Virus record (IMG/VR): IMGVR_UViG_2926965794_000002
Coordinates: 32,001 to 96,000 of that record
DNA from: a virus
Lineage: Duplodnaviria > Caudoviricetes
Length of the DNA: 64,000 nt
Strand: one strand, 5' to 3'
Shown here: positions 25,006 through 41,715 of the stretch, piece by piece
Numbering within the stretch: the first letter of the stretch is position 1
Layout: each line of letters opens with the position of its first letter
Program-made: the position numbers and the translations under genes
Notes under the pieces: model-generated
Told to the model about the DNA's origin: nothing
What the model saw: only the letters and a program-made list of their open reading frames with translations
Databases searched by the model: none

Positions 25006-25556
25006 TGGTTGTTCACCACCAGCTTAGGCGGCTCAGGTGCTTTGAACTTGCCGCCGACATTCTCGGCGGCCGCCTGACGCTCTTCCTTCTTCCCCAGCCT
25101 GGCGGGCTTCGGTGCCGCCGCAGCAGCGGCCTGTGGCTTTCCGCGCTCGCCAACGGAGCCGGCCGCGCGCGAGACCTTACCCATTTCGTCGAGCCGCTTG
25201 ATTGCCGAGACGTTCTTCGCGTGCGCGGCCTCGAACAGAAGCTTGGTCACCTCAGCACGCTGGTTCGCGTATCCGTTCTCGAGCTCGTTGGCGCAGTGCT
25301 TGCGCAGGGTGTCGACATCGACCTTCAGCGCCCGGGCGATCATGGCCTCAGACTCGCCGCAAAACTTCAGCCGCTCGACCGTCTGCCGGTCCGCGATCGA
25401 CGGCGCCCATGCCGGACGACCGCCCTTGTTGCGCTTCGCCGAATTGCTCGACGTCCCGCGCTTTTTCGGTTTCGACGCCTTCCGCTTCGCCGGCTTCGCT
25501 TCAGCGCGATCGCTGGCTTCCGCAGGATTTTCGTCGGCGGTCGGTTTTTCGGTCAT
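25002..25556 (-). CDS. terS: Terminase small subunit
   Basis: GGRP, HTH IARALKVDVDTLRKH, LGKKEERQAAA tail; overlaps the terL start; start trimmed to MTEKP. Confidence 0.85.
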   Translation of the reverse strand: MTEKPTADENPAEASDRAEAKPAKRKASKPKKRGTSSNSAKRNKGGRPAWAPSIADRQTVERLKFCGESEAMIARALKVDVDTLRKHCANELENGYANQRAEVTKLLFEAAHAKNVSAIKRLDEMGKVSRAAGSVGERGKPQAAAAAAPKPARLGKKEERQAAAENVGGKFKAPEPPKLVVNNQ

Positions 25557-25579
25557 TTTGCGAGTTCCGGCCAAAAATT

Positions 25580-25700
25580 CGGGCCGCCTCAAAAAAATTG
25601 TGCAGGTGCCACCCCGAGCGGTCCCGGGTCCGCGCGCCGTCGGGAAATTGCCCCGGGGGTACGGTTCGGCCGGATTGCTAGCGAAATGGGCGGGTTTAGG
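25580..25700. other. Candidate packaging end (cos) region
   Basis: Non-coding DNA directly upstream of terS with GC-rich near-palindromes (CCCCGGGGG) and an abrupt composition change; exact site not determinable. Confidence 0.35.
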
Positions 25701-25956
25701 CGCCGTTCTGGCGGGTTTTGCGTGCGATTGGCGCGGTTGAGGCGCGCCGAGCTATGGGCGCCGAGGGCTTGCCGGATGGCCGAGGCCGATAGCCTGGCCG
25801 ATTAGTGTCAATCCGTTGTGCTGGCGCCGCTGGCGCCGCGCCGCGCGCGGTAACCGTCCGCCTTCTCTCTCGCCTAGCGTGCCTAGTGGCGTGGTGCGGT
25901 TGACGTTGCGGCCTTGCGTCCATCCGCCGAGGCCGAGGCGCCGAGGCCAGAAACGC

Positions 25957-25986
25957 AAAACCCGCCGAGGTTTCCCGCGGCGGGTT
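25957..25986 (-). terminator. Intrinsic terminator (minus strand)
   Basis: AACCCGCCG-cgggaaacct-CGGCGGGTTTT. Confidence 0.55.
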
Positions 25987-26162
25987 GGCTGCAGCGACAC
26001 TGCGCCGAATGCCTGTTCTGAATCATAACTGGAGTCGGAGTGTCAAATCCGGTTCCGCTACTCGGCGGTGCATGACGGCGCCGCGCGGCCTCGGTCTCTC
26101 CCTGTTCTGTGATAGCTATTCGCTAGATGGACTGTTCAAACTCACGGGATAGGGAAAACGAC

Positions 26163-26474
26163 ATGCCTGCAGCGAAGGCGAATAGCTCGGCGCCGAGACA
26201 AGCCGGCAAAGGCCGCGCCTATGCCTCGGCCGGCGCCACACTGCGAATCAGCGCGGCCGAATTCATCGCTTGGCAGGAAGAGCTAGGCCTTTCGAATGGT
26301 GCTGCAGCTGCAGCGCTATTCGTTTCGCCCAATACGGTTACAGCGGTGCGCGCGGAAGGCGGTAGCGCTGAACTGGCGCTGAAGTGTCGCGCCATCGCCG
26401 CCGGCCTTTCGCCAGCGCTACCCATGCAAGAGGCCTTCCGCCTCGGCCGGATAAACGCCATTCTGCAGGAATAG
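26163..26474 (+). CDS. Small XRE-like HTH protein (first island gene)
   Basis: SAAEFIAWQEELGLSNGAAAAALFVSPNTV helix-turn-helix pattern; start trimmed to MPAAK. Confidence 0.7.
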   Translation: MPAAKANSSAPRQAGKGRAYASAGATLRISAAEFIAWQEELGLSNGAAAAALFVSPNTVTAVRAEGGSAELALKCRAIAAGLSPALPMQEAFRLGRINAILQE

Positions 26475-26547
26475 GCCGCAATTCCCTGTAGTGTGAGGTC
26501 GGCCGGCCGAAACCCTATCTTTTTTCACAGAGCAGCGAATTAGGGGA

Positions 26548-26576
26548 TTGACAGGCACCGCGCTTTCTAGGCATGT
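26548..26576 (+). promoter_or_regulatory. Candidate sigma70 promoter of the island
   Basis: Perfect TTGACA at 26548, 42 nt before repeat A1; -10 box weak. Confidence 0.4.
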
Positions 26577-26623
26577 GCGGCGAACGGAACGCGCGATTGT
26601 GCGCAAATCAAAAGGCCGCCGAC

Positions 26624-26860
26624 ATGGCAAAGACTATCGCCTATCAAGTCACAGTCCGCCGCATTGCTACCGGTTGTGACTTCCATATCCGTCTATTCTC
26701 ACAGTCCGCCGAGCATGCCAGCAACCGCGCCGTTGATCGCGCGCGCTTCGCTGAACGTATCTCACTGGCCAAATATCAGGAACTGAATGCCAAAGGCATT
26801 GCGTGCTTTCGCGTCATTTCTTGCGAAGTGTCCGCCGATCAATCGCGGCCGATTGGTTAG
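26624..26860 (+). CDS. Small hypothetical island protein
   Basis: ATG 34 nt after repeat A1, with RBS. Confidence 0.75.
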   Translation: MAKTIAYQVTVRRIATGCDFHIRLFSQSAEHASNRAVDRARFAERISLAKYQELNAKGIACFRVISCEVSADQSRPIG

Positions 26861-26868
26861 GCCGCGCC

Positions 26869-27036
26869 ATGCTCGCCGCTTTCATTTCCTTTTGCATCGC
26901 CAACCCGCCCTTTGCAGGTTTTATGCTTGCAGCGATCTATACCCTTTGCTGGGCCATCCTAGCTCCCTTTCTGTATGCGCCGGCAACGCCTCGGCGCCGT
27001 TCGATCCGGCGCCGCGCGCGCCGCAACCGCCGCTAG
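26869..27036 (+). CDS. Small membrane protein with Arg-rich tail
   Basis: MLAAFISF.. hydrophobic segment then RRRSIRRRARRNRR. Confidence 0.5.
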   Translation: MLAAFISFCIANPPFAGFMLAAIYTLCWAILAPFLYAPATPRRRSIRRRARRNRR

Positions 27037-27047
27037 GAGCAAAGCCA

Positions 27048-27284
27048 ATGCCGATTATCGTTTGCCATGATGGGGCGATCTACCGCGCCGAGATTTGGGG
27101 ATTCCGCGGCACTTGCGCGCTAATCCATAAGGCTAGCGGCCGATATGCGGTTATCCGCGGCGCCGAGGCCGCGCGTTACCATGACGCAATCGCGGTTGCG
27201 TATCTGCGATTTGGTAGCATGCCGGGTGATACGCTCTATGCCTGGCTTTGGACCAATGCCGGCTTTCATCGTTTGGCCAGCTAG
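27048..27284 (+). CDS. Small hypothetical island protein
   Basis: AGGAG RBS, MPIIVCHDG start. Confidence 0.6.
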   Translation: MPIIVCHDGAIYRAEIWGFRGTCALIHKASGRYAVIRGAEAARYHDAIAVAYLRFGSMPGDTLYAWLWTNAGFHRLAS

Positions 27285-27339
27285 GCCGCCTTCTAAGACT
27301 GCAACCGCGCGACTGTGCGCAAATCGAGAGGCTAGACCA

Positions 27340-27420
27340 ATGAGAGAGAATTCCGATTTTATCCTGTTCTGCGCGGCGGCTTTCGTCGGAACGTTTGTCA
27401 TTTTCGCTTGCTGTATGTGA
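27340..27420 (+). CDS. 26 aa hydrophobic micro-protein
   Basis: ATG 34 nt after repeat A2; MRENSDFILFCAAAFVGTFVIFACCM. Confidence 0.55.
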   Translation: MRENSDFILFCAAAFVGTFVIFACCM

Positions 27421-27430
27421 GGCGCGCGCC

Positions 27431-27670
27431 ATGGCAAAGCCTGATGATTTGACTTCCTACGCCTCGGCCGGATATGCCGCGCCGGCCTCGGCCAATCCGC
27501 ACTTGTGGAGTAGCGCAACACACATTGCGTTTCGCCTCGGCCAATGGTTGCACGAAACCGGCCGGCCGGCCCCGCGGAACGTCCGCATGTCGCGCGGCCT
27601 TTCGATCCGCGCAAACGATATGCTGATACGCTGGAACGCCAAAACCGGCGCATGCGAACGGATCAACTAA
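27431..27670 (+). CDS. Small hypothetical island protein
   Basis: GAGG RBS; MAKPDD..NPHLWSS..AFRLG. Confidence 0.65.
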   Translation: MAKPDDLTSYASAGYAAPASANPHLWSSATHIAFRLGQWLHETGRPAPRNVRMSRGLSIRANDMLIRWNAKTGACERIN

Positions 27671-27764
27671 CGCGATTTGCAGCCTATGCCGTGCAAGTCA
27701 CGGCATAACCGGCAAACCGCCGAAACCGCGCAATTGTGCGCAAACTTGAAAAGGACATAGGCAA

Positions 27765-27869
27765 ATGAAGTATCGCAAGCATGATTCCGACCGCCGGCCG
27801 AGCGACAAGCGGACTCGCCGCGCCGCGGTGCGCGATGGCAAGCGCGCGTTTCTGAATTCTTGCCTCTAA
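27765..27869 (+). CDS. 34 aa basic micro-protein
   Basis: ATG 38 nt after repeat A3; MKYRKHDSDRRPSDKRTRRAAVRDGKRAFLNSCL; below the ORF-track cutoff. Confidence 0.55.
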   Translation: MKYRKHDSDRRPSDKRTRRAAVRDGKRAFLNSCL

Positions 27870-27882
27870 GGGAGCTAGGGCA

Positions 27883-28179
27883 ATGCCTGCAGTCACACTA
27901 GACGGCGCCGTCTATTTCAATTGCTGTACGGATTACTCGGCGCCGGATTGGTCCGCCTTTCGTTCGCTGGAAATTGGAGGTTGCAGTGTCCGGCATGATC
28001 CGGACACGGGCGAAAGCAATGTGACCGGAAACCGCGCGCCGGACGATTCCGCCTTTTGGACTGTATACGCTCGCGAGCATGACGGTTGCGCGCTCGCGAT
28101 TACCGATTGCGGAATCCAAACGGAAACACACGCGATTGCCGAAACGCTATCCCGGCTTTCCGGCCTTCCCCTGATTTGA
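27883..28179 (+). CDS. Small acidic hypothetical protein
   Basis: GGGAG RBS; 98 aa. Confidence 0.7.
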   Translation: MPAVTLDGAVYFNCCTDYSAPDWSAFRSLEIGGCSVRHDPDTGESNVTGNRAPDDSAFWTVYAREHDGCALAITDCGIQTETHAIAETLSRLSGLPLI

Positions 28180-28267
28180 CGTTGCGACACTGCGCAGCAT
28201 GTCTGCGCAGCACGGAACGCCAAAGCGGACCAACGCGCGATTGTGCGCAATCGAAAGGCTTTCGACC

Positions 28268-28672
28268 ATGAACCGCAAACCGCAATTCGCTTGGCAATGT
28301 TCCTTTATGGGGACTGTCTACTATCGCGTTACGGATCAAACCGGCAACTATGAGGTTTCCATCCGTCATTCCGTTTCCGACTATGAGCTATCGATAGCAA
28401 ATGGCGATGACGTCCGGCGCGCCATGCGGACGGGAATCGGCATGCTTGTCCGATATGCCGAGGCATTGCCGGCGGATATCGTCGCGGCCTTCAATGCCTG
28501 GCGCGCCGCTGAACATGCTGCAGCCATGGCGAAACTTGACGCCGCGCCGGAACGCTATGGCGTCATCGCGCCGGATGACGAATTGCGCAAGCCGCCAATG
28601 ATCGCCCGCGCGGCCTCCTATGATCGCGCGCTGGGATGGATTCCGGTTTGCGAACTGGAGCGCGCAGCATGA
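28268..28672 (+). CDS. Hypothetical island protein
   Basis: ATG 34 nt after repeat A4. Confidence 0.75.
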   Translation: MNRKPQFAWQCSFMGTVYYRVTDQTGNYEVSIRHSVSDYELSIANGDDVRRAMRTGIGMLVRYAEALPADIVAAFNAWRAAEHAAAMAKLDAAPERYGVIAPDDELRKPPMIARAASYDRALGWIPVCELERAA

Positions 28673-28998
28673 ACCGCGATGCATTCCGCCGCACCATTTC
28701 CGCGCTACGCGCCGAGGCGAGAGGCCGGCGCCATCATGTCGCGACATTCTGGATTGTCTGCAACGGCGTCGAATTCACGGCGCGCGCAGAACGGGCAATC
28801 GGTCCGGTTGATTTGCGGACGTCGCGTCTATCTTGCCGGCCTCGCCGAGCTCTTGCGGCCGAGGCCTTGCGTTGGGCGGCTCATTATCGGCGCGCCGCGA
28901 AACACTCGCCTATCGCCCGCGCTCGCAATCTAGAGGCCGCGCGCGAATGCATCGCCGAGGCCGCGGCCTATCATTCCGTCTTTAACCGCCTTCCGTGA
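28669..28998 (+). CDS. Arg/Ala-rich hypothetical protein
   Basis: ATGA overlap with the upstream gene. Confidence 0.6.
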   Translation: MNRDAFRRTISALRAEARGRRHHVATFWIVCNGVEFTARAERAIGPVDLRTSRLSCRPRRALAAEALRWAAHYRRAAKHSPIARARNLEAARECIAEAAAYHSVFNRLP

Positions 28999-29011
28999 GG
29001 GATACCGCACC

Positions 29012-29350
29012 ATGAAAACAGCGCGCTTTTGGCACTATCACAAATCCGGCCTTGTTCGTATTGCGTTGCGGACTGGCCAAACATTGCACCATTCGCACGG
29101 CGCCAGAACAGACGAGGGATGGACGCGCGAGTCCAATATCTTTTCTTTCGACGGGCAAACCGTGACTAACGAATGGTGCGACGATGGCGCGGATTGCGAT
29201 GGACGCCTAACCTGCAATGGCGTTTGCAGCTGCGCGGCCGATAGGCTTTCCGCGGGTTACCATGACGTTGAAAACGGCGCGCGGTTTCCGGACTGGCAAG
29301 CCGCCGCAAGCATACAACGCGATTATTCCGCCGAGGCTGCAGGCTACTAG
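29012..29350 (+). CDS. Hypothetical protein (TDEGW..DCDG motifs)
   Basis: GAGGG RBS; 112 aa. Confidence 0.75.
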   Translation: MKTARFWHYHKSGLVRIALRTGQTLHHSHGARTDEGWTRESNIFSFDGQTVTNEWCDDGADCDGRLTCNGVCSCAADRLSAGYHDVENGARFPDWQAAASIQRDYSAEAAGY

Positions 29351-29407
29351 GCCGGCGCCGTCGAATTCAAACGCGCGATTGTGCGCAAATCGAAAGGACA
29401 GACAGAC

Positions 29408-29599
29408 ATGGCACGATATGGCGGCGATCCGCGATGGATCATTACCAAATATCCGGCCAATGACCGGAACGGGCATTTTATCCCGGTAGGAACGCGCGCG
29501 TTCTATTATCCGGTTTCCAAACGCATGTTGACCGGCGCCGAGGCTGAACAGGCAAGCCGCGATTTTGAGGCCGCACGTTTCGACGAAAGCATGAGGTAA
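29408..29599 (+). CDS. Small hypothetical island protein
   Basis: ATG 36 nt after repeat A5; DPRWI.TKY motif. Confidence 0.75.
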   Translation: MARYGGDPRWIITKYPANDRNGHFIPVGTRAFYYPVSKRMLTGAEAEQASRDFEAARFDESMR

Positions 29600-29605
29600 A
29601 GCGCA

Positions 29606-29905
29606 ATGGATTTTGCAGCATTCCAAGCCGCCGCGGCCGAGTTGGATAGCCGCATGAAAGAGGCCGGCGCGCGCCTCGGCGCCGTGACAGAAAGCCTTGC
29701 GGCCGAGATGGGGATTCCGGCGCGCGGTCCGATGGGATTGACGCCGGACCGCATTAAGTTTGATCCGCGATACCGGCTTGCGAAGGCCGCGGCCGATATC
29801 GCCTTTGCGGAACTACGGGCATTCAATGGCCGGTATGCGCCGCGCTTCAAGAAAGAGATACGCGCCGAGATTGACGCGCGGCGCCGTGCGAAGTGCACCG
29901 CTTAA
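29606..29905 (+). CDS. Small hypothetical protein (GPMGLTPD motif)
   Basis: GAGGT RBS; 99 aa. Confidence 0.75.
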   Translation: MDFAAFQAAAAELDSRMKEAGARLGAVTESLAAEMGIPARGPMGLTPDRIKFDPRYRLAKAAADIAFAELRAFNGRYAPRFKKEIRAEIDARRRAKCTA

Positions 29906-29967
29906 CCTGGCCTCGCCTTCCATCACTATTCCCGCGCGATTGTGCGCAACAGAAAGGACAATGGACC

Positions 29968-31068
29968 ATGCAACAGAGTGATATGATCGCGGCAAAGGCT
30001 GCCAAGGCAACGGAACGGCGCGCGCTGGCAATTATCGCCTATGACAACGCTAAACAGGATCCTGACGGCGCGAACTGGCAAGGGATTGCCGATTTGCTGC
30101 GCCTCTCCCTTCCCTCGGCGAAAGCCAAGGCCGCGCCGGCCGAGACTGGCGCCGACAACGGCGCGCCATGGTCGGATTATGATATCCCGGCAAGCGCGAC
30201 GAAACGTCTAGGCAAATCGCCTATCATCGTTGTGACGTTCTCTTGCGGTGCCGTGGTCTGCGCGCCGGCGGTTTCCCTTCCCGGCAAGCCGGTAAACATC
30301 GGCCGCGGCTTGCGTGTTGCCTTTGCCTTCTACCGCGCGCGGATCGCCCGGGAATTCGGCAAGGCCTCGGCCATTGGTTCGGATTGCGTGAACGTTCCGG
30401 CCATCGTTTCCGCCATCTGTGACGCTACCGGCGCCGAGTATGGCGCGGACGAATGCAACGCCAAAACCTCCGAATTCCGCCGCGGCGGTTTCGATCATGT
30501 CGCGCTTTCCGCCGAGGCCTCGGCCTTGCCGGAAAAGGCCGAGGCCGGCGAGTTGACGCGCGCCGACTTCTACCGCGGCCATTACCTCATTGCCTCGGCC
30601 GAGGCCGAGATTTTGGCCGGCGCCAATGAGGATCGCGCGGCCGAGTTGGGCGCGCAGATTAACGATTATCGCGCGCGCCTCGGCGGCTTGTCATGGCTGG
30701 AAATTGAAGCGCGGCGCCGCGCCGCAATCCGTGAGGCCAAAGCCGCGGCAAAGGCCGAGGCCGAGGCTATGGCCGAGGCCGGCCGGCGCGCCGAGCGCGA
30801 GGCCGAGGCGCACGCAGCTGCAGCCAAGGCCGAGGCCGAGGCGCCGCGGTTGCGGCTTGTCGGGGACAATTCCGCCAGCGTCGAAACCGCGGCGGCGCCA
30901 TCCCTCCCAGATACGGCCGATTCCCTCCCGGTTGCGCCCGCGCCAAAATCGGCCGCGCCTCTCCCGGTTGCGCCTTCCCGCGTCGCGCGCTTCCTGGCCT
31001 CGTCATCGCTCGGCGCGCCTCGTCATTCCCTCCCGGTTGCGCCTTTCTGCGCGATCCGCTCGGCCTAG
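29968..31068 (+). CDS. Ala-rich hypothetical protein with LPVAP repeats
   Basis: ATG 35 nt after repeat A6; 366 aa. Confidence 0.75.
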   Translation: MQQSDMIAAKAAKATERRALAIIAYDNAKQDPDGANWQGIADLLRLSLPSAKAKAAPAETGADNGAPWSDYDIPASATKRLGKSPIIVVTFSCGAVVCAPAVSLPGKPVNIGRGLRVAFAFYRARIAREFGKASAIGSDCVNVPAIVSAICDATGAEYGADECNAKTSEFRRGGFDHVALSAEASALPEKAEAGELTRADFYRGHYLIASAEAEILAGANEDRAAELGAQINDYRARLGGLSWLEIEARRRAAIREAKAAAKAEAEAMAEAGRRAEREAEAHAAAAKAEAEAPRLRLVGDNSASVETAAAPSLPDTADSLPVAPAPKSAAPLPVAPSRVARFLASSSLGAPRHSLPVAPFCAIRSA

Positions 31069-31083
31069 TCGGAGTCGCCAGCA

Positions 31084-31281
31084 ATGCACGCCTATGGTTT
31101 CGATATCCAACCGGACGGGGCAAGGTTTCGCCTAGTTGACCGCGCCGAGTTCAACCATTGGGGCGAGTTATCGCCGCGGTTCGATACCGCGGCCAAGGCC
31201 GAGGAATACGCGCGCCGTTGCGACGAATTAAAGCGCGGCAAGCGCTCAACCGTCGAATTGCGCGCTTGGGAACTGACCTAG
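31084..31281 (+). CDS. Small hypothetical island protein
   Basis: GGAG RBS; 65 aa. Confidence 0.6.
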   Translation: MHAYGFDIQPDGARFRLVDRAEFNHWGELSPRFDTAAKAEEYARRCDELKRGKRSTVELRAWELT

Positions 31282-31349
31282 GCCGCGGCGCGCCTCGGCC
31301 TCTCGAATTGACACGCGCGATTGTGCGCAAACGGAAAGGAATACAGACA

Positions 31350-31763
31350 ATGCGGAAACCGACTCCCAACAAAGAAAAGGCCGCGCAGCTGGCGCGCCAA
31401 ATCGCCAACATGACAGACGAGCAAAAGGCGCTTTGGCTGCAGCGCGCGCCGATCCTCACCGCGGACGCGCGGCCGATATCCGGCAAAAATCACATGCTGG
31501 CGGCGATGCAGTGCGAAGGCGCAACCATGCTCGGCGGCTTCAATCAATGGCTTGCCGCCGGCCGCGCGGTGCGGAAAGGCGAGTCCGCAATCTATATCTT
31601 TGCGCCGTCCGGCCGGCGCGCACCGGCCGAGGCCTCAGCGCCGCCGAGCGCGGAAGGCGCCGCGTCCGAGGCCGTGGCGGAGTCGGTGCGGTTTATCCTG
31701 GTGCCGGTTTTCGACGTTTCGCAAACCGAGGAAAAGCCGGCCGAACAAGCCGCCGCGGCATAG
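31350..31763 (+). CDS. ArdC N-terminal (DUF1738) ssDNA-binding domain protein
   Basis: SGKNHML..GFNQWLAAGRAVRKGE.AIYIFAP..F.LVPVFDVSQTE signature; ATG 36 nt after repeat A7. Confidence 0.85.
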   Translation: MRKPTPNKEKAAQLARQIANMTDEQKALWLQRAPILTADARPISGKNHMLAAMQCEGATMLGGFNQWLAAGRAVRKGESAIYIFAPSGRRAPAEASAPPSAEGAASEAVAESVRFILVPVFDVSQTEEKPAEQAAAA

Positions 31764-31820
31764 TCCCGGCTACGATCGATTTTGCACCCCCGAGCTACGG
31801 CCGATTTTGCGCAACACCGC

Positions 31821-31850
31821 TTGACAGATTCGGCCGACACAAATTAGAGA
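31821..31850 (+). promoter_or_regulatory. Candidate sigma70 promoter
   Basis: TTGACA-N18-TAGAGA, 38 nt before repeat A8. Confidence 0.45.
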
Positions 31851-31894
31851 AGCACCCCCGCGCGATTGTGCGCAAATCGAAAGGACAGAAACAC

Positions 31895-34255
31895 ATGCAG
31901 CATTCCGCCACCTATTCGCCCGATGATAACAAGCTGCGCCTTTATCCGGCGCACCGCCTGGACGCCGAGGAGTACGCGCGCGTGAAGGCCGCCGGCTTCA
32001 AGTGGGCGCCGCGCCAAGAACTGTTCGTCAAACCGTCCTGGAGCCCAAGCGCCGAAGATTTGCTGATTGAGATGTGTGGCGAGATCGGCGACGAGGACAA
32101 GAGCCTGGTAGAGCGCGCCGAGGATCGCGCCGACCGCTTCGACGAGTACAGCGACAAGCGGCTTTCAGAAGCCAACCGCGCGCGCGAGGCCGTGGACCAG
32201 ATCGCGGAACGGTTCGCGATGGGGCAGCCGATCTTGGTCGGCCATCATTCGGAGAAGAGCGCCCGCAGGGACAAAGAGCGCATGGATTCCGGCATGCGCA
32301 AGGCTCTCAAACTCTGGGACACCTCGAAATATTGGACGGCGCGCGCGGCCGGCGCCATCGCTCACGCGAAATACAAGGAACTGCCGGCGGTGCGTCATCG
32401 CCGCATCAAGGGCATTGAGTCCGATAAGCGGAAGCTGGAACGCCAGCAAGCAGAAACCGAAAGGCAGCTGAAGGCCTGGCAGATCGTCGCCGGCATCACC
32501 GACCTGGAGAAGCAGCGCGCGGCCGGTCTGACCGTGGCCAACAGCAGCGGTTATTGGTCGATGTCGTTTCCGCTGGCTGACTATCCGCGCGATCCGCCCG
32601 CCTCGCAGTATGAGGGACCGATGGGCCTTTGGTCCGCAATTGACGGGAACGTCATCACCGCCGCGCAGGCCGCCGCTATCGCGATTCCGAGCCTGCAGCG
32701 TTCCGGGCCTTGGCGAGACCGTTGGGTTGCGCACTATGACAACCGGCTGGCCTATGAACGCGCGATGTTGGCCGAGCAGATCGGCACCGAGGCGACCGCC
32801 AACCCGCTGGCCGACCGCTTCGCCTTCGCCGTCGGCGGCGAGGTGCAGACACGTCGCAGCGATGAATGGGTTACGGTGTTGAAGGTCAACCGCGGCGCTA
32901 ACGGTTCAGTTTCCAGCATGACGACGACCACGCCGGCCGGATCGCGCGGCAAGCAAGCGCATTGGAAGGTGGAGAGCATCCGCGATTATCGCGCGCCGAG
33001 CGCCGAGAACGTCGCCGCAGCGAAGGCCGCAACCAAGCTGCCGCCGCTCTGCAACTATCCCGGCGAGGGATTCCGCGAGATGACGGAGACCGAATGGAAG
33101 GGCCGCCGGCAGTTCTCGGATTTCTCCTATATCGGCAAGGTGAAGGAGACCGAGACCCACGGCGCGCATCGCGTGCGGCAAATGCCGACGCCCGGCGAAT
33201 TCTGGAAGAAACAGCAAGTTTTCATTACGGATGCAAAGCGCGTCGATCCGCCCAAGATCGCGCCGGCAGCCGAGCCGCAGGCGCCCGCGGAATTCGTCGC
33301 CGAGTATGTAGCGCCGCCCGCTGTTGATATTGACGCCATGCTGGCAACGGTCGGCGAGATCACCGGCGCACCGGTCGAGACCGTCACCCAGGACGAGCCC
33401 GAGGCCGTGCCGGCGCTGGTCCCGGTTGCGCCCGCGGAGGAGCCGCGACGCCTCGGCGACGCTAAGGCGGAGGCCCAGCGCATCGGCGCTGAGATCATCA
33501 CCGGACTCGGCCAGTTCCGTGTTGGCCTCGGCCAGCACGTCACCGACTGGTGCGACGATGAGGCGACGGCCTGGCGGCAGTTCTGCGAACTGGCTGGCGT
33601 GCCGTTCGAAGCCGAGGCGGTGCCGGCGGACCTGCGGCCGCGCGTTCTCGCCCCGGTCCCGGATACGGCCGATTCGCCGGAGCCGACCGCGGCGGACAGC
33701 TTCGAGGCAATGCGGGCCATGCTGAAAGGCGGCGGCGTTCAAGTCGTCGTTGCGCCTCAACTCTTCCCGACCTCGAACGAACTTGCCGCGGACGTCGCCG
33801 AGGCCGCCGACATCCGGCCCGGGCAGCGCATCTTGGAGCCGAGCGCAGGAACCGGCGCGCTTATCGAGGCCGCGCGCAACTGTGCCGATGGTCTCCAGGT
33901 GGTGGCGGTCGAGATCAACACCAAACTGTGCCAGGCGCTGGCCAACCGCTTCACCGGGTTGACCGTCATCAATGCGGACTTTCTCGACATGGCCGGCGCA
34001 ACGGACAAGTTTGACCGGATCATCATGAATCCGCCATTCGAGCGCGGCGCCGACATCAAGCACATTGAGAACGCGCGGCGCTTCCTGAAACCTGACGGCC
34101 GACTGGTCGCCATCTGCGCCGACGGACCGCGCCAGCGCGCGAAGCTCGAACCGATCGCGGTGGAGTATCGCGCCCTGCCCCCGGGATCCTTCAAGGCCGC
34201 CGGAACGATGGTCAACACGGCGCTCGTCGTGATCGATGGGCCGCCGCCGAGATAG
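31895..34255 (+). CDS. DUF3560-domain protein fused to a C-terminal amino-DNA methyltransferase
   Basis: ATYSPDDNKLRLY, GFKWAP, GQPILVGHHSEK; C-terminal ILEPSAGTG and IMNPPF; ATG 36 nt after repeat A8. Confidence 0.9.
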   Translation: MQHSATYSPDDNKLRLYPAHRLDAEEYARVKAAGFKWAPRQELFVKPSWSPSAEDLLIEMCGEIGDEDKSLVERAEDRADRFDEYSDKRLSEANRAREAVDQIAERFAMGQPILVGHHSEKSARRDKERMDSGMRKALKLWDTSKYWTARAAGAIAHAKYKELPAVRHRRIKGIESDKRKLERQQAETERQLKAWQIVAGITDLEKQRAAGLTVANSSGYWSMSFPLADYPRDPPASQYEGPMGLWSAIDGNVITAAQAAAIAIPSLQRSGPWRDRWVAHYDNRLAYERAMLAEQIGTEATANPLADRFAFAVGGEVQTRRSDEWVTVLKVNRGANGSVSSMTTTTPAGSRGKQAHWKVESIRDYRAPSAENVAAAKAATKLPPLCNYPGEGFREMTETEWKGRRQFSDFSYIGKVKETETHGAHRVRQMPTPGEFWKKQQVFITDAKRVDPPKIAPAAEPQAPAEFVAEYVAPPAVDIDAMLATVGEITGAPVETVTQDEPEAVPALVPVAPAEEPRRLGDAKAEAQRIGAEIITGLGQFRVGLGQHVTDWCDDEATAWRQFCELAGVPFEAEAVPADLRPRVLAPVPDTADSPEPTAADSFEAMRAMLKGGGVQVVVAPQLFPTSNELAADVAEAADIRPGQRILEPSAGTGALIEAARNCADGLQVVAVEINTKLCQALANRFTGLTVINADFLDMAGATDKFDRIIMNPPFERGADIKHIENARRFLKPDGRLVAICADGPRQRAKLEPIAVEYRALPPGSFKAAGTMVNTALVVIDGPPPR

Positions 34256-34331
34256 CCCCCGGCTGCGCCTACCTCCCGGCTACGATCGATTTTGAACCGC
34301 GCAACTGTGCGCAATTTTGAAAGGACACCGA

Positions 34332-34838
34332 ATGCCCATGACCTTCGAGCAGTTTCAGGCCACCCGCACCGAATGCGCCGACATCGGCGCAGCCATCAGC
34401 ACCGATATGGGGATAACCGAGCCAGTGCCCGGCTTTCTGTACCTCGGGACGTTCTATATCGAGGGCATGACGTCAACCTGGCCCGACGAGGCGCGCGCGC
34501 AGGGGACGTATCACCTCCTGATCGAGCGCGACGAATGGATTAGCGACGACCTCGAAGCGTTGGAGCGCCACCTTTTTGAGTTTGCGCTCGCCTCTGGTGC
34601 CGAAATGGGAATTGACGACCTCTGCGCCGAGTACAAGACCTGGAACAAGGCGCAAGGCCTCAACCTCAGCAGCGCTGATGAGCATCTGGCCGACGAGACG
34701 CTTTCCGAGGAGCAGCGCGGTTGGCTGCGCGACTTCTCCAGCCGTTGGGAAGAGGCTGAGCAGCGCGCGCGGCGTCACAAGTGCCAGCACCGCGACAGCG
34801 GGCGCGGCGTCTGCATCGACTGCGGCGCAGCCCTTTGA
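34332..34838 (+). CDS. Acidic hypothetical protein with C-terminal Cys/His cluster
   Basis: ATG 34 nt after repeat A9; ends CQHRDSGRGVCIDCG. Confidence 0.75.
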   Translation: MPMTFEQFQATRTECADIGAAISTDMGITEPVPGFLYLGTFYIEGMTSTWPDEARAQGTYHLLIERDEWISDDLEALERHLFEFALASGAEMGIDDLCAEYKTWNKAQGLNLSSADEHLADETLSEEQRGWLRDFSSRWEEAEQRARRHKCQHRDSGRGVCIDCGAAL

Positions 34839-34873
34839 CCCCTCGGCTACGACCGATTTGACGGAGGCTCCTC

Positions 34874-35041
34874 ATGCTCACAATTGAGATAATCGCGACC
34901 GCGACGGGCAAATGCATCAAGCGCTGTGCGTTCGAGGCCGCGACGGTTTCGGATCGCGCCGCGGTGTTCCTGTCATTCCTCAATTACTGGGAACGGCATT
35001 TCGGACAGCAGACCGATTACACCTGGCGCACACCCGCATAG
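34874..35041 (+). CDS. 55 aa hypothetical protein
   Basis: GGAGG RBS right after a B repeat; MLTIEIIATATGK..; below the ORF-track cutoff. Confidence 0.55.
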   Translation: MLTIEIIATATGKCIKRCAFEAATVSDRAAVFLSFLNYWERHFGQQTDYTWRTPA

Positions 35042-35056
35042 GAAGGAGGTTGACTC

Positions 35057-35374
35057 ATGACGACCAAGAAGCCCGATATCTACTCCGGCCCCATCGAAGG
35101 CGCGCGCGCCGCCATCATCGAAGCGCTCGGCGGTGCATTCGCAACCCCGCCAGCCTCGCCGCCCGAACGCCAGCTGACCGACGACGAGAAGGCCTTTATC
35201 GCCCGCATGGCGCCGCACGTCATGGCCGGCAAGACGATGGAGGAAGCCGCGGCGGCCGTCGTCCAGGACGATGAGCGGCTTTGGCTGACCGCTACGGAGG
35301 ACTCCGACGTTGGCCGCGCGATCCGCGACGAGCTCGCCGCCACGGTCTACGCCGCGGCGCGATCTGCGACATAG
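35057..35374 (+). CDS. Hypothetical protein
   Basis: AGGAGGT RBS; 105 aa. Confidence 0.7.
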   Translation: MTTKKPDIYSGPIEGARAAIIEALGGAFATPPASPPERQLTDDEKAFIARMAPHVMAGKTMEEAAAAVVQDDERLWLTATEDSDVGRAIRDELAATVYAAARSAT

Positions 35375-35449
35375 AGACGGCTGCACCTCCCGCTTACGAC
35401 CGATTTCCCAATACCCCCTCGGCTACGGCCGATTTGAGAGGAGTCCGAA

Positions 35450-36073
35450 ATGCCTCGACGCAAATCCAAACTGCCGGCACCGAAACCGCCGATCGAGATC
35501 GGCGACTATTTCGCCCATCGCGGTCTCGACAATGTCACTGTCCGTCTAAAAACAGGCCCTCTTGACAACAACTTCTTTTCGCTCCGCGACGAGCACATCA
35601 CGCAGTGCTCGACTTTCGAAGGTGCCGAGCGCCTGGCAGCGCTGATGAATCAGGCTCGCGACCTCGCCCGTGACTATCGCATGGTCTCCAATATCGGCGG
35701 TCAATTCGGCGGCCGCGATCAGATCGCAGGCTACATCGCGCGTCACGTCGCCAATGCCCTCGACGTGCCACACCGATACGTCTCACCGGACGAGCACACC
35801 CGCGAGACGCTCAATGAATACGGCCGTCAGGTCGGCGATCTCGCGCGGTTCTTCGCCTTCCTGGATGCGACCGGTACGCCGGCCACGCTCGATGACTTCA
35901 AGGCCCGGGCCATGCTGCGCCGGCATGCTATCAACGACCGCGACTGCACGTACTGCGACCACGACCGTTCCCGCGAGGTTGTCCGTGCTTGGCGCCGCAC
36001 CTTCGATCCGTCGACCGCCGCGGCAGATCGCGCCGCGCAGGTTCTCCGGGAGATAGAGGCCGCAACATCATGA
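35450..36073 (+). CDS. Hypothetical protein
   Basis: GAGGAG RBS after a B-repeat pair; 207 aa. Confidence 0.7.
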   Translation: MPRRKSKLPAPKPPIEIGDYFAHRGLDNVTVRLKTGPLDNNFFSLRDEHITQCSTFEGAERLAALMNQARDLARDYRMVSNIGGQFGGRDQIAGYIARHVANALDVPHRYVSPDEHTRETLNEYGRQVGDLARFFAFLDATGTPATLDDFKARAMLRRHAINDRDCTYCDHDRSREVVRAWRRTFDPSTAAADRAAQVLREIEAATS

Positions 36074-36345
36074 CCAACGAACAAATGGTTTCAGCCGCCG
36101 GCATCAAGGTCGTGACCCGTGCCGAGTTCGACGCCGCGACCGACGTTCCCGCCGGCGTGCGCCTGGTGGCCAATCGGCTGTTCAAACGCTGGGGCGGCGA
36201 CTTCGTGGTGTACGACCCGGCCGGCGGCGATGACGGCTGGCTGCTCATCGACGATGATCGAGAACAGATCATCGGCGAGACGATCGAACACCTCGGACGG
36301 CTCAACCCTGAGCCGTCGGCGCCGGCGCAAGGCTCGCTTTTCTGA
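36070..36345 (+). CDS. Small acidic hypothetical protein
   Basis: ATGA overlap; MTNEQMV start. Confidence 0.65.
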   Translation: MTNEQMVSAAGIKVVTRAEFDAATDVPAGVRLVANRLFKRWGGDFVVYDPAGGDDGWLLIDDDREQIIGETIEHLGRLNPEPSAPAQGSLF

Positions 36346-36563
36346 TGACACTGAGGCCCTGGAAAGAGTTGACCCGCGACCAGCGGGCCGAGCGCCTCGG
36401 CGACGCGCGGCGATGGAAGAAGCCCGCCGAGCCTGGAGACAAGCGGGCAGCCGAACTGCTGCGGCGGCTCGAGTCCGGAGAACCCTTGACCCGGGCCGAC
36501 CTAAAGGAGGCCCGCGCGCTGCTGCGCGCCAAACGAGGAAGGAATCAAGATGAGACAGGTTAG
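36345..36563 (+). CDS. Small hypothetical protein
   Basis: TGATG coupling; 72 aa. Confidence 0.55.
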   Translation: MTLRPWKELTRDQRAERLGDARRWKKPAEPGDKRAAELLRRLESGEPLTRADLKEARALLRAKRGRNQDETG

Positions 36564-36915
36564 ACGCGTGCCCGCCGATTGGCAGCACCCCCGCAACTCC
36601 GGAGGCCGGTATGTCCCGCTGCTGGAGACTGCCCCGGATGCGCCCGCGCCCGATCCTACCCGCCACATGCCGGCTTGGCCAGCGGCGCAGCGCACGCACT
36701 GGCAGCTGTACGAGACCACCAGCGCCGGCACGCCGGTTTCGCCACCCTGCCCGTCACCCGAGGCGTTGGCCAAATGGCTGGCCGGCCACCATGTGGAGGC
36801 CGCACCAGGCTTCACGGGAACGGAGGCGCAATGGCTCGGCGCGATCAAGCGCGGCACCATCCCGCCGGTGATGACCGTCGGCAAGCGCCAGGTCAATCCG
36901 CTCGACTACACCTGA
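36550..36915 (+). CDS. Hypothetical phage protein (RRVPADWQHP..WQLYETTS.GTPVSP)
   Basis: AAGGA RBS; 121 aa. Confidence 0.75.
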   Translation: MRQVRRVPADWQHPRNSGGRYVPLLETAPDAPAPDPTRHMPAWPAAQRTHWQLYETTSAGTPVSPPCPSPEALAKWLAGHHVEAAPGFTGTEAQWLGAIKRGTIPPVMTVGKRQVNPLDYT

Positions 36916-37008
36916 TCGGCCGGGACTCCCGGCTACGATCGATTTTGTGCTACCCCCTCGGCTACGGCCGATTCCGGGCGACTGTGCCCAACCGGAAAGG
37001 ATCTCGAG

Positions 37009-37332
37009 ATGTCACCACCCCGATTTGCTCACCGCAAGATCACGAGCGAAGATTTCAAGGCCGAGCTGGCCAAGCAAGGCATGTCGGTGCCGGCGTTCGC
37101 GCGCGTCTGGTGCCAGAACCTGTCTACGGTGAAGAAGTGGGCGAATGGCGGGAACGATATCCCGACCTGGGTGCCGATCGCGCTCACCATGATGACGCTG
37201 CCGAATGCCCATGGCACCGCTCGCATGGCGGCGGCGGCGATGATCGAAGAGGATCGGCTGCATCCCGAGCTCGGGAAATTCCCCTATCAGAAGCTTCGGC
37301 AGATGCCGGCGGACGACGAGATCGAGGAATAG
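37009..37332 (+). CDS. Small XRE-like HTH protein (last island gene)
   Basis: SEDFKAELAKQGMSVPAFARVW..STVKKWANG..IP.WV; ATG 34 nt after repeat A10. Confidence 0.8.
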   Translation: MSPPRFAHRKITSEDFKAELAKQGMSVPAFARVWCQNLSTVKKWANGGNDIPTWVPIALTMMTLPNAHGTARMAAAAMIEEDRLHPELGKFPYQKLRQMPADDEIEE

Positions 37333-37340
37333 CCCCCGGG

Positions 37341-37556
37341 CTACGATCGATTTTGCGCGGCCCGGCTGCGCTTCTTCTTCGTCGTGCGCCGATTCTTCGG
37401 CTGCGATCGCTTCGCTGCCGGCGTCGTCGGCGCGTCCTTTGCTGCGGCCGCGGCATCACGGGCATCAAGCTCGCGCTTCAACGCCTGATTACGCTCCCAG
37501 TTGGCTTCGCGGAAAGCGCGGAGTCCGTCAGCGCGCGTAGTTGGCTCTTTTGACAT
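37341..37556 (-). CDS. Small basic hypothetical protein
   Basis: GGAGG RBS; stop codon overlaps the last B repeat. Confidence 0.55.
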   Translation of the reverse strand: MSKEPTTRADGLRAFREANWERNQALKRELDARDAAAAAKDAPTTPAAKRSQPKNRRTTKKKRSRAAQNRS

Positions 37557-37565
37557 GCCTCCCTC

Positions 37566-37910
37566 CTACGATCTCATGCGGTTTGCTCGAGCCTGAATGC
37601 CCGACCTGGTGTTGTGCGAGTTGCAGGCGCAGCGCCCGTTGGTCAGATCCAGCGCTAGTTCCGGATTGTCGCGGATATCCCTGATGTGGTCGGCATACAT
37701 CTGGTGACCGTTGGCGCGGCTGCGCTCGCAGCGGAGGCCGTTCTCGACATACTCGCAACGCCAGCCGGCGCGCCGCTTCACCTTCTCGGCCCAGTCCTTG
37801 TGCTCGGCGGTCTGGTAGTGAGGATCCGCGCGCTTCGGCAGGATTGTCGCCTTCCGGGTGTCCAGCGTCTGGATGCGCGAGCTGAGGCTCGGAATGCGAG
37901 CTCGAGTCAC
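37566..37910 (-). CDS. Phage HNH endonuclease (terminase-associated type)
   Basis: C..C, ADHI, LDLTNG, CNSHN motifs; size and position. Confidence 0.85.
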   Translation of the reverse strand: MTRARIPSLSSRIQTLDTRKATILPKRADPHYQTAEHKDWAEKVKRRAGWRCEYVENGLRCERSRANGHQMYADHIRDIRDNPELALDLTNGRCACNSHNTRSGIQARANRMRS

Positions 37911-38101
37911 CGCCCACCCCCTTTCTCATTGCGCCTTGGGCCGAACATCTTCCGGCCCATCGAGCGAAGCATCTCGCGCTGATCCCAGGTCATCTGGTCG
38001 CGATCGACGTCGACCAGGAGGAGACCGTATTCACGCCAAACCCGCTGTTTCGTTTCCAGGGGGGTCTCACGGGTGTTGGGGGCAAACCTTCCAAGCGACA
38101 T
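37907..38101 (-). CDS. Small hypothetical protein
   Basis: 64 aa, coupled to HNH. Confidence 0.55.
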   Translation of the reverse strand: MSLGRFAPNTRETPLETKQRVWREYGLLLVDVDRDQMTWDQREMLRSMGRKMFGPRRNEKGGGR

Positions 38102-38111
38102 CGATCCAGCC

Positions 38112-39023
38112 CTACTTCCGCAAGCCCATGCCGGCAGCGGTCTTCAACCGCCGTACCGCGTCCCATGTCCGGTCGATGATCTCGACACCGTCGTAAAGCC
38201 TCACCAGCGCGTTCAGCGCGATCCGGAAGTCGGAGTTGTTGGTGCGATGCTCCTCGCCGCCATGCATCCGGACGTCCTCGCTGCTGCACTCGAGACCGAT
38301 CCTGACGAGGAGGATGTCGAACTGCCGCTGGCCGAGCCGGCGCTCGACATCCCGGAGACGTCCGCTGGCCTCGAGGGCGATGGTGTGCGAGGGCGAGCCG
38401 CCGCCGCCGCCATCGACCTTGTCCTGCAGCGCGAAGCCTCGCGATCCGTGGAACGTGGCCAAGTCGAAATCGCGTCGGAAGCGATCTGCGGCGCTCTGGC
38501 GCAGCTTGTCCTCTGGATCCGCGGCGCCGCGTTTCTTGGATTCCGTGAGATTGAGGTGCGACGCTCGGACCGTGTCGACCAGTACGTTGAGCCTTGGATT
38601 TTGTGGGTCCGGGATGGTGTGCTTGCGCCGGCCGCTGGCCAGGCGCTCGGCTTCGTCTGCCGCCTTCTGCTCTTTTTTGGTGAGCGGCTTGCCCCAGAGA
38701 TTCAGCGGGTCGGTGGAGTCGATCGTCCCGCTTCGGAAGCCCTGCTGGAACAGCTTGTTCCGGTGCAAGGCCTCCTTCACGCGGCGCGCACCCTCGGTGT
38801 CGCGGTCCATCAGGTACTCGACCACGAACTCCTGGATGACGCGCTGCCGGCGGCGCGTCTCCTCAAACAGGAGCTGACCTTCATAGGTCAGCCCCTTGTA
38901 CGACTCCATTGGTCGAGCGCGCCGGATGTCGCGCATGAAAGCACGGGCTCGGCGATCGCGCTCCTTGTCGACGTGTACCGGTGCGATATCCGTGATCTGT
39001 GCTTGAGACATTCTATCCTCCAC
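38112..39023 (-). CDS. Putative late-gene regulator (DUF6456-like)
   Basis: AADRFRRDF..KVDGG..RLG..FRIALNALVRLY pattern; occupies the Q-like position. Confidence 0.55.
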   Translation of the reverse strand: MEDRMSQAQITDIAPVHVDKERDRRARAFMRDIRRARPMESYKGLTYEGQLLFEETRRRQRVIQEFVVEYLMDRDTEGARRVKEALHRNKLFQQGFRSGTIDSTDPLNLWGKPLTKKEQKAADEAERLASGRRKHTIPDPQNPRLNVLVDTVRASHLNLTESKKRGAADPEDKLRQSAADRFRRDFDLATFHGSRGFALQDKVDGGGGGSPSHTIALEASGRLRDVERRLGQRQFDILLVRIGLECSSEDVRMHGGEEHRTNNSDFRIALNALVRLYDGVEIIDRTWDAVRRLKTAAGMGLRK

Positions 39024-41308: not shown

Positions 41309-41715
41309 GATTCCGTTGAAAAAGGCCGGCAGTTTTCGTTGTAATAGCTCCGTCGCGACGTGGCCGAACTGCTCTACCGACCCTATGCGAGCCTCGGGCT
41401 GGGCATCGGGATCAGCTTGGCCATCTTTCGAAGGTTCTGGGCGGTGGCTGCGAGGATGAACTCGTCGCGCGCGCCGTTCGGACCTCGTAAACGCAAACGG
41501 TCGAGCTTGAGAATGCGCTTGAGGTGCGCGAACAACATCTCGATTTTCTTGCGGAGCCGGCGCGAGGTGCCTCCCTCCCACGATCTCGCGATCTGGCGCG
41601 CCATGTCGCGAGCGCCCTCGTAGATCGAGCGCGGCCCTCTCCGTGAAGCCTGCTTGGGGCAACACCGAGCCTTCAATGCGCATCGATCACAATCGCGCTT
41701 GCTGGCGAGGTAAAG
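41309..41715 (-). mobile_element. IS1182-family transposase remnant (3' fragment plus right end)
   Basis: RKKIEMLFAHLKRILKLDRLRLRG..DEFILAATAQNLRKMAK C-terminus; TTTTTCAACGGAATC end-like sequence; 5' part missing. Confidence 0.8.

Follow-up and report, generated by a model that had tools for sequence, protein, structure and literature searches.

The island and its repeated element

The window analysed here is a stretch of 64,000 nucleotides (positions 32,001 to 96,000) of the 109,940-bp provirus record IMGVR_UViG_2926965794_000002. It belongs to a temperate, siphovirus-type prophage of Bradyrhizobium, the host being assigned from the Bradyrhizobium names carried by homologues of the last gene of the operon described below. 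In the left 25 kb of the window, the siphovirus structural genes, for the large terminase, protease, major head, tape measure and tail proteins, form a module on the minus strand. Diverging from the terminase genes is a plus-strand block of about 23 genes (26.6–37.3 kb, around 11 kb), here called the island, to the right of which lie DnaB, primase-like, methyltransferase and sliding-clamp genes. The subject of this analysis is a 17-nucleotide element, CGCGCRAYTGTGCGCAA, which is confined to the island, lies ahead of the ribosome-binding site of nearly all genes in it that are translated independently and is predicted to fold into a small hairpin. Most island genes match no known family; since the recognisable ones are an ArdC-like gene and a DUF3560–methyltransferase fusion gene (Table 1), the island is probably an accessory, anti-restriction operon.

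Ten copies of CGCGCRAYTGTGCGCAA are present in the window (A1 to A10, Table 1), all on the plus strand between positions 26590 and 36991, where 0.18 copies would be expected by chance; none of 100 shuffled sequences reached ten. In the complete provirus record no copy beyond these ten was found, and none on the opposite strand. All ten had been located in an earlier reading made from the letters alone (the sequence-only reading), and what it had said of their surroundings could be reproduced. Nine copies have no mismatches, while A10 has two, which form the compensatory double change C3>G and G14>C; otherwise, stem variation inside the window is limited to G or A at position 6, facing an invariant T at position 11. 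An AAAGGA-like Shine–Dalgarno (SD) sequence is located between the motif and the ATG at every copy, and the distance from the start of the motif to the ATG is 34–38 nucleotides (nt), directly so for nine copies. At A6, the closest ATG (28 nt) opens a frame of six codons only, and the real start of the 366-residue gene, at 29968, is 35 nt away. TTGACA hexamers, placed by the sequence-only reading about 40 nt before A1 and A8, lie 42 and 38 nt upstream of these copies; a generic promoter scan, negative for the plus strand, called neither site because their −10 hexamers are weak. Island genes without a hairpin overlap or abut the preceding gene and are translationally coupled to it; there is thus one hairpin per translational unit.

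Table 1. Coordinates of the hairpin copies and other features of the island, in positions of the window (aa, amino acids; ORF, open reading frame).
Feature	Position	Strand	Remarks
A1	26590..26606	+	GCGCG-AUUG-UGCGC, then AA; 17 nt before ATG of a 78-aa gene
A2	27306..27322	+	precedes 26-aa hydrophobic ORF (27340–27420)
A3	27727..27743	+	precedes gene of the conserved 34-aa arginine-rich peptide
A4	28234..28250	+	precedes 134-aa gene; homology breakpoint against several relatives
A5	29372..29388	+	precedes 63-aa gene; homology breakpoint against L045
A6	29933..29949	+	precedes 366-aa gene
A7	31314..31330	+	precedes ArdC N-terminal-domain-like gene
A8	31859..31875	+	precedes DUF3560–methyltransferase gene; begins at about the expected transcript start of the TTGACA/TTAGAG promoter-like site
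A9	34298..34314	+	precedes 168-aa gene; D4 repeat 3 nt upstream
A10	36975..36991	+	GGGC/GCCC stem; precedes helix-turn-helix gene; same variant at the orthologous site in 9/9 close relatives
TTGACA (−35-like)	26548..26553	+	read from the sequence; followed by GCATGT/TAGGCAT −10-like stretch conserved in relatives
Promoter-like site TTGACA-17 nt-TTAGAG	31821..31826 (TTGACA)	+	conserved in relatives
34-aa arginine/lysine-rich peptide	27765..27869	+	in 16/19 other islands; missing from truncated loci
ArdC N-terminal-domain-like protein (anti-restriction family)	31350..31763	+	cargo
786-aa fusion of DUF3560 and S-adenosylmethionine-dependent methyltransferase	31895..34255	+	cargo
107-aa XRE-type helix-turn-helix protein	37009..37332	+	last operon gene; in 19/19 other islands
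D4 (CCCTCGGCTACGGCCGATTT), nine intergenic copies	31763..37355	+	20-nt windows at 31763, 31788, 34273, 34840, 35387, 35416, 36926, 36955 and 37334
D4, two further copies inside ORFs	30904 and 33656	+	

A family of islands with fixed geometry

Nine other IMG/VR proviruses hold multiple exact copies of the element; with up to three mismatches allowed, each has 9–13 copies, on one strand, in an island of 8–12 kb. A covariance model applied to the ten islands finds 103 sites, all on the sense strand and all in the accessory operon, with a gap between 21.7 bits for the sites and 16.9 bits for the noise. Among the 103 sites, G2, G4, C5, A7, G12, C13 and A16 are invariant or nearly so (A7 and A16 in 103, U11 in 102 and A17 in 101 of them), and loop positions 8 and 9 vary. 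The end of the stem is separated from the start codon by 17–24 nt in 98 of 100 sites, and the SD core begins 8–11 nt past the stem in 93 of 100; the distance from the upstream stop codon to the motif ranges from 2 to 168 nt. Because the former distances are fixed and the latter is variable, the element is associated with the start of translation downstream of it and not with the stop of the gene upstream.

The motif persists in phages whose proteins are only 57–60% identical, and the genes downstream of the hairpins differ between phages. Distant homologues of the DUF3560–methyltransferase (loci L178–L186, with 43–58% identity) have neither the motif nor a comparable repeat, so the hairpin travels with the core genes of the island and not with its methyltransferase cargo. 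Pattern scans of genome contigs (with GCGCRATNGTGCGCAA) and of viral contigs (with GGCCGATTGTGGCC) are uninformative on distribution, the matches listed being mostly single chance ones. Comparison of the island with plasmids and with GenBank phages gave no match, the window terminase is at most 57% identical to those of Burkholderia, Bordetella and Xanthomonas siphoviruses, and an exact look-up of the DUF3560–methyltransferase of the window returned no identical protein on record.

Evidence for pairing within a single strand

The sequence-only reading had folded the element as an RNA hairpin, GCGCR-AYUG-UGCGC. Homologous islands make a stronger case for this fold than the window alone could, as all five pairs show compensatory change once distant phages are added. 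In the close family the stem hardly varies and the GGGC/GCCC variant counts as a single event, since it is always the copy before the last gene; this family could not answer the question, and distant islands were needed. Eight of these were reached through homologues of the last gene, two through IMG/VR and three through distant homologues of the 34-residue peptide. At the same place, they contain the stems GGCCG-AUUG-UGGCC, UGCCG-AACG-UGGCA, UCGCA-AUCA-UGCGA and UUGCA-AUCG-UGCAA, as well as GCGAA-AUUG-UUCGC, GGGCA-AUUG-UGCCC, GGUCA-AUUG-UGACC and GCUCA-AUUG-UGAGC. When the 54 distinct sites are considered, 98.1% of the cells pair and all five pairs have changed on both sides; none of 500 shuffles matches this, and controls in which the partner was slid are far lower.

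A test free of any filter on pairing, anchored on C-R-A-N-N-N-U-G, leads to the same picture: the three outer pairs are formed in 50 of the 86 sites with an SD sequence and a start codon, versus 48 of 480 sites lacking this context and 2 of 47 sites of the opposite strand. The 50 paired sites have twelve different outer stems. GGCC, UGCC and GCGC stems occur together in one phage (locus L187), and stem types also coexist in L327 and L328. The G6·U11 pair is present in 70 of the 103 sites, and the rare single changes C15>U and U11>C retain pairing by wobble. The coexistence of stems in one phage, the prevalence of G·U and the wobble-preserving changes are in line with base pairing inside one strand and speak against a protein dimer that reads half-sites of a duplex. 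Strand, position and the G·U pairs point to RNA rather than DNA, a hairpin in the non-template DNA strand being a formal alternative. The alternative stem register (C1-G14 and so on) is ruled out by the GGGC and GGCC variants, which could not pair in it but do so in the register adopted here.

Across lineages, the loop-proximal core C5, R6, A7, G10 (mostly), U11 and G12 (C-R-A-N-N-G-U-G) is kept, as are the two 3′ adenines in most lineages, and the outer stem merely pairs. On the alignments, a core conserved as sequence above an outer stem that is only paired is what hairpins show when a protein recognises their loop. A partner RNA for the loop, antisense or acting in trans, is unlikely: no reverse-strand copy was found in the record, in a search that was not exhaustive, and positions 8 and 9 vary freely within one phage. 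The element has no match at E ≤ 1 to the Rfam covariance models in window positions 25500–38500, and no description of it was found in the literature or among RNA families.

Some points qualify this picture. The thermodynamic signal is weak, with the hairpin in the minimum-energy fold in 8 of 10 contexts, non-significant z-scores and the G·U closing pair not predicted; as the hairpin is so small (14 nt), the folding energy is uninformative either way. A wider set of sites contains 39 double-change cells and 12 extra pair types, with the proviso that some of its sites were picked with a pairing filter. Recombination or gene conversion, and not selection, could in part be why the copies within a genome are identical, and template-switch repair of quasi-palindromes can mimic compensatory change in DNA, though it would not keep G·T. 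Judged from the aligned sites, the hairpin is nevertheless real, conserved and structurally constrained, and it is very probably a selected single-strand element tied to translation starts.

Possible exchange of gene cassettes at the hairpin

The sequence-only reading had also proposed that gene cassettes are shuffled at the repeat, and the breakpoints of homology were examined with this in mind. In pairwise BLASTN comparisons of the ten islands, 88 of 1148 ends of homology blocks (7.7%) fall inside the 17-nt motif, about five-fold more than the 1.5% expected at random, and block starts accumulate at its 5′ edge. At A4 and A5, the flanks on either side of a shared hairpin differ from phage to phage. 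The enrichment speaks for the proposal, but it is a correlation only, and breakpoints at gene boundaries are expected anyway. Identical copies fronting unrelated genes are what suggests the hairpin as a seam of exchange.

Genes conserved with the hairpin

When the 23 island proteins of the window are compared with 19 other islands, only two genes are near-universal, those for the terminal helix-turn-helix (HTH) protein and the 34-residue peptide; the remainder is variable cargo. The 107-residue HTH protein has a confidently predicted XRE-type fold (predicted local distance difference test score, pLDDT, of 87.8). The hairpin before its gene is the most deviant one in every lineage, with a GGGC stem, an AUCC or CCCC loop or a longer loop, which would suit an autoregulated gene. 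The peptide is strongly basic, with the conserved pattern KYR..DRK..KR[TI]RR..GK.AFLNS, and is represented by ten clusters only among 1.8 billion proteins. All three of the loci reached via its most distant homologues have hairpins, with new stems.

Proposed function

Our best guess from these patterns is that the hairpin functions as a multi-copy translational operator. In the favoured reading, to which we give a probability of roughly 45%, it would be the operator for a phage-encoded, sequence-specific trans-acting factor that sets the translation of all cargo cistrons. The hairpin (a stem of 4–5 bp, a four-base loop starting with A, an R·U closing pair and usually a 3′ AA) would be transcribed within one long accessory operon and be placed at the 5′ edge of the ribosome-binding region of each non-coupled cistron. 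Binding of the phage factor would set translation initiation, mRNA stability or both for all cargo cistrons at once; a protein bound 8–11 nt upstream of the SD core would compete with the 30S subunit or recruit it. The candidates for this factor are the products of the two genes found in nearly all islands: the terminal HTH gene, with its Aca-like position and most deviant own hairpin, and the gene for the arginine-rich peptide. In addition, phages may use the hairpin as a seam for exchanging cargo cassettes. This reading is favoured because it would explain why bases are conserved that pairing does not require, why the distance to the SD is constant and why the hairpin is confined to a single operon; it would also account for the two core genes and for the aberrant copy that precedes the HTH gene. 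There are precedents for its parts: the HTH proteins Aca1 and Aca2 bind 5′-UTR (untranslated region) hairpins of anti-defence operons (PMC13551039), and PhaF activates translation via a site 27–31 nt before the start codon (PMC12818456).

The evidence on the two candidate factors also has its adverse side. The fold matches of the HTH protein are weak (E 0.035–0.6) and include, next to Aca2 and Aca10, HigA2, NE0471, MqsA and restriction-modification controller proteins (C-proteins); its sequence has no family match in Pfam or NCBIfam. No known relatives of the peptide were found in the ESM Atlas, PDB sequences or Pfam. In the three loci reached through the peptide, the HTH gene was not detected, two of these loci being short or cut.

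A more specific version, which we hold tentatively and consider rather unlikely in its entirety, is a two-gene module of the 34-residue peptide and the XRE-type HTH protein acting on a boxB-sized hairpin as a distributed translational operator. It would switch exchangeable anti-defence cargo post-transcriptionally, and the hairpin would also be the docking seam for new cassettes. If correct, it would provide the first mechanism for the long-unexplained "start-associated" phage repeats. The operator reading in general, if it holds, would show post-transcriptional co-regulation of a cargo operon whose content changes constantly, and offer a compact, portable pair of hairpin and regulator for engineering in rhizobia. 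Start-associated repeats have been known since 2011 without a mechanism, and Aca binding to single leader hairpins was shown only recently. The system is a clean one to study, with more than 100 near-identical sites, covariation that splits paired from read positions, two candidate trans-acting genes and anti-restriction cargo.

Comparison with known systems

Three analogues had been named in the sequence-only reading, the start-associated sequences (SAS) of mycobacteriophages, the promoter–stem-loop units (PeSL) of T4-type phages and the Aca2 system. The hairpin is a member of neither of the first two families; the Aca2 analogy gains some support from the terminal XRE-type HTH gene and the weak HigA2 and Aca2 fold matches.

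The SAS of Cluster K is a 13-bp asymmetric repeat that contains the SD core (GGGATAGGAGCCC), lies 3–7 bp from the start codon and occurs in 11–19 copies per genome (PMC3203893, Pope et al. 2011). It is found in one orientation in the non-structural region, before unrelated genes with larger intergenic gaps, has lineage-specific consensus variants and is of unknown function (PMC3203893). Our hairpin shares the similar copy number, the single orientation, the non-structural region, the position before unrelated genes with gaps and the consensus variants typical of each lineage. However, it is 17 nt long and unrelated in sequence, is located 17–24 nt before the start with a separate SD, and belongs to alphaproteobacterial phages. 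The extended start-associated sequences (ESAS) of the same cluster are paired imperfect 17-bp inverted repeats with a variable spacer, the departures of which, according to the authors, do not support RNA pairing (PMC3203893); the hairpin, in contrast, has 5-bp arms, a fixed 4-nt loop and compensatory change at five pairs.

T4-type PeSL, as described in PMC2839356 and PMC4122927, are conserved intergenic units of an early sigma-70 promoter and a terminator-like stem-loop, flanking variable genes at the junctions of insertions, deletions and replacements. The hairpin resembles them in its position at junctions of exchanged genes, and differs in being tied to the ribosome-binding site, with no −35 or −10 sequence conserved alongside it.

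Aca motifs are small 5′-UTR hairpins near the ribosome-binding site of a counter-defence operon with the HTH gene at its end; the HTH protein binds promoter DNA and RNA, repressing translation (PMC13551039). The island has a covarying hairpin 8–11 nt upstream of the SD core; its last gene encodes a predicted XRE-type HTH protein, a possible counterpart of Aca, with Aca2 and Aca10 among its weak fold matches (E ≥ 0.035). In the known Aca systems the leader of a short operon carries a hairpin or a pair of them; the island has 9–13 copies over about 11 kb, one per translational unit. Its recognised cargo consists of ArdC-like and methyltransferase genes rather than known Acr genes, its HTH protein has no Aca family match by sequence, and the arginine-rich peptide is an extra core gene. 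Aca systems also have an inverted-repeat DNA operator overlapping the operon promoter; no separate inverted repeat was found here, but A1 and A8 are just downstream of predicted TTGACA-type promoters, where their DNA form could play this part. By analogy, the hairpin most resembles the Aca-associated RNA motifs, multiplied along a long operon with a second core gene.

Among classical phage systems, T4 gp43, RegA and the MS2 coat protein control initiation from beside the SD, RegA at unstructured sites, and arginine-rich peptides, as in the N–boxB pairs of lambda and P22, bind 5-bp hairpins. As in these operators and boxB, the loop and adjacent pairs of the hairpin appear to be read as sequence and the lower stem just pairs; unlike the hairpin, they are single sites for one gene or two nut sites, and none is repeated ten-fold or associated with cassettes. 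The lambda nut system has one or two sites, a GNRA-like pentaloop and a full-length N protein, in contrast to 9–13 sites, a four-base A-N-N-G loop and, as the only arginine-rich protein, a peptide of 34 residues. Cluster A stoperators are asymmetric duplex sites that the immunity repressor reads as sequence and that are spread over the genome, whereas the hairpin has self-complementary stems that vary in one phage and is restricted to one operon.

Alternative explanations

Six rivals to the trans-factor operator were ranked in falling order as insulator, processing signal, antitermination site, double-stranded DNA operator, recombination seam and promoter. The first, which is unlikely, regards the hairpin as a protein-independent cis element that insulates the ribosome-binding site from upstream sequence, keeps the SD unpaired, offers a standby or stacking platform and protects the 5′ end where it lies at a transcript start. 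The position fixed at the 5′ edge of the 30S footprint, the occurrence at non-coupled starts only, the start of A8 at about the predicted transcript start and an outer stem that merely needs to pair all agree with this, and such an element would be useful where the cassettes of an operon get swapped. However, purely structural elements have no need for near-invariant A7, U11, A16 and A17, nor for a core kept in distant phages, and none of the phage's other operons has the element.

A processing signal is improbable. In this model, for which the processing of T7 early RNA by RNase III is the comparison, a host or phage endoribonuclease would cut the polycistronic RNA beside each hairpin and release monocistronic mRNAs with a protective 5′ hairpin. 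The occurrence of a single copy in each translational unit, its conservation as sequence and the A-rich single strand after the stem would be in keeping with it, but RNase III needs a stem much longer than 5 bp, none of the island genes was recognised as coding for a ribonuclease, and the constant SD spacing would not be needed.

We give little credence to processive antitermination of the boxB/N kind, in which an arginine-rich peptide would bind the nascent hairpin so that the polymerase reads through the long operon and the weak, terminator-like repeat D4. The GC-rich 5-bp hairpin is similar in size to boxB, the conserved KRTRR of the peptide is like arginine-rich motifs, and D4 repeats end in a U-run and precede several hairpins. 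On the other hand, a peptide of 34 residues is too short to include the regions of N that bind NusA and the polymerase, an operon has only one or two nut sites and not one for each cistron, the fixed SD distance is unexplained, and D4 lacks compensatory change (see below). A search for a NusG paralogue found none.

A double-stranded DNA operator, or stoperator, at which a phage repressor dimer would bind GCGC-N6-GCGC and block initiation or elongation of transcription at each gene, has a similarly poor standing. In its favour, 10 bp separate the centres of the GCGC arms, the operon includes an HTH gene, A1 and A8 are just downstream of promoter-like sites, where their DNA form could act as operator, and there is a precedent in the L5 stoperators (named in PMC3203893). 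Different self-complementary stems coexisting within one phage do not fit a single repressor site; moreover, the commonest form has G opposite T and is no DNA palindrome, and 103 of 103 sites have one orientation, at a distance fixed to the SD and not to a promoter.

It is very improbable that the hairpin has nothing to do with expression and is a seam of recombination or a selfish short repeat, maintained by exchange and quasi-palindrome correction. The five-fold enrichment of block ends, the block starts at the 5′ edge and the different flanks joined at A4 are what this would lead one to expect, yet breakpoints at gene boundaries need no such repeat, and it leaves unexplained the G·U pairs, the conservation of bases that do not pair, the restriction to one strand, the fixed SD distance and the survival of the motif at 57–60% protein identity.

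Hardly credible, finally, is a promoter for a phage-specific RNA polymerase or sigma factor: one conserved 17-nt block does front many genes, as T7-type promoters do, but TTGACA is present at only 2 of 10 copies, nothing is conserved upstream of the block and no conserved −35 or −10 element flanks it, covariation of a stem is no property of promoters, no sigma-70 region 2 domain was found in the record, and no T7-type polymerase was found either, a weak negative because the positive control of that search gave no signal.

A second repeat, D4

A second repeat, D4 (Table 1), accompanies the hairpins. Across the ten islands there are 126 copies on the sense strand and one on the other, often as tandem pairs; what follows a copy immediately on its 3′ side is an SD in 37 cases, a hairpin in 22 and another D4 in 35. 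Positions C3, C11, G12, A17, T18 and T19 are nearly fixed. A hairpin or terminator structure for D4 is disfavoured by its changes, which are one-sided only, with the loop-closing pair formed in 31 of 61 variants; D4 is probably a linear motif. One copy (33656–33675) is in frame inside the 786-residue gene, in the linker between the DUF3560 and methyltransferase parts, and is followed by GAGG..ATG; in L044, L046, L048 and L049 there are two tandem copies. This looks like the scar of two former cassettes that were fused, or an internal start for the methyltransferase domain.

Other features of the islands and their surroundings

The 26-residue ORF after A2 (27340–27420) is strongly hydrophobic (MRENSDFILFCAAAFVGTFVIFACCM), and in relatives the first hairpins of the island are likewise followed by small hydrophobic ORFs; small membrane proteins are possible products. 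In L182 (7091–7500), a three-copy repeat (TCGGGGGATA...TACAACACCA) with a spacing of 150–250 nt and a sequence unrelated to the hairpin is located just upstream of the distant DUF3560–methyltransferase gene. The GC content is low, at about 54%, around 40–42 kb; in this stretch, at 41383–41676 of the window on the minus strand, is a 97-residue piece of a DDE transposase (PF13751, PF01609), which looks like the remnant of an insertion sequence between the island and the replication genes.

Two observations concern the far end of related islands. In L189 (10609–12944), on the chromosome of Bradyrhizobium sp. 41S5, the HTH gene is directly followed by genes for an AAA_15/AAA_21 ATPase and then a DUF4435 protein, a domain pair typical of PARIS-type defence systems; this suggests a defence insertion adjoining a counter-defence island. 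In L188 (6979–8289) and L192 (5492–6808), a gene for a TROVE-domain (Ro60-like) protein is present with an HNH gene on the opposite strand, just past the end of the island.

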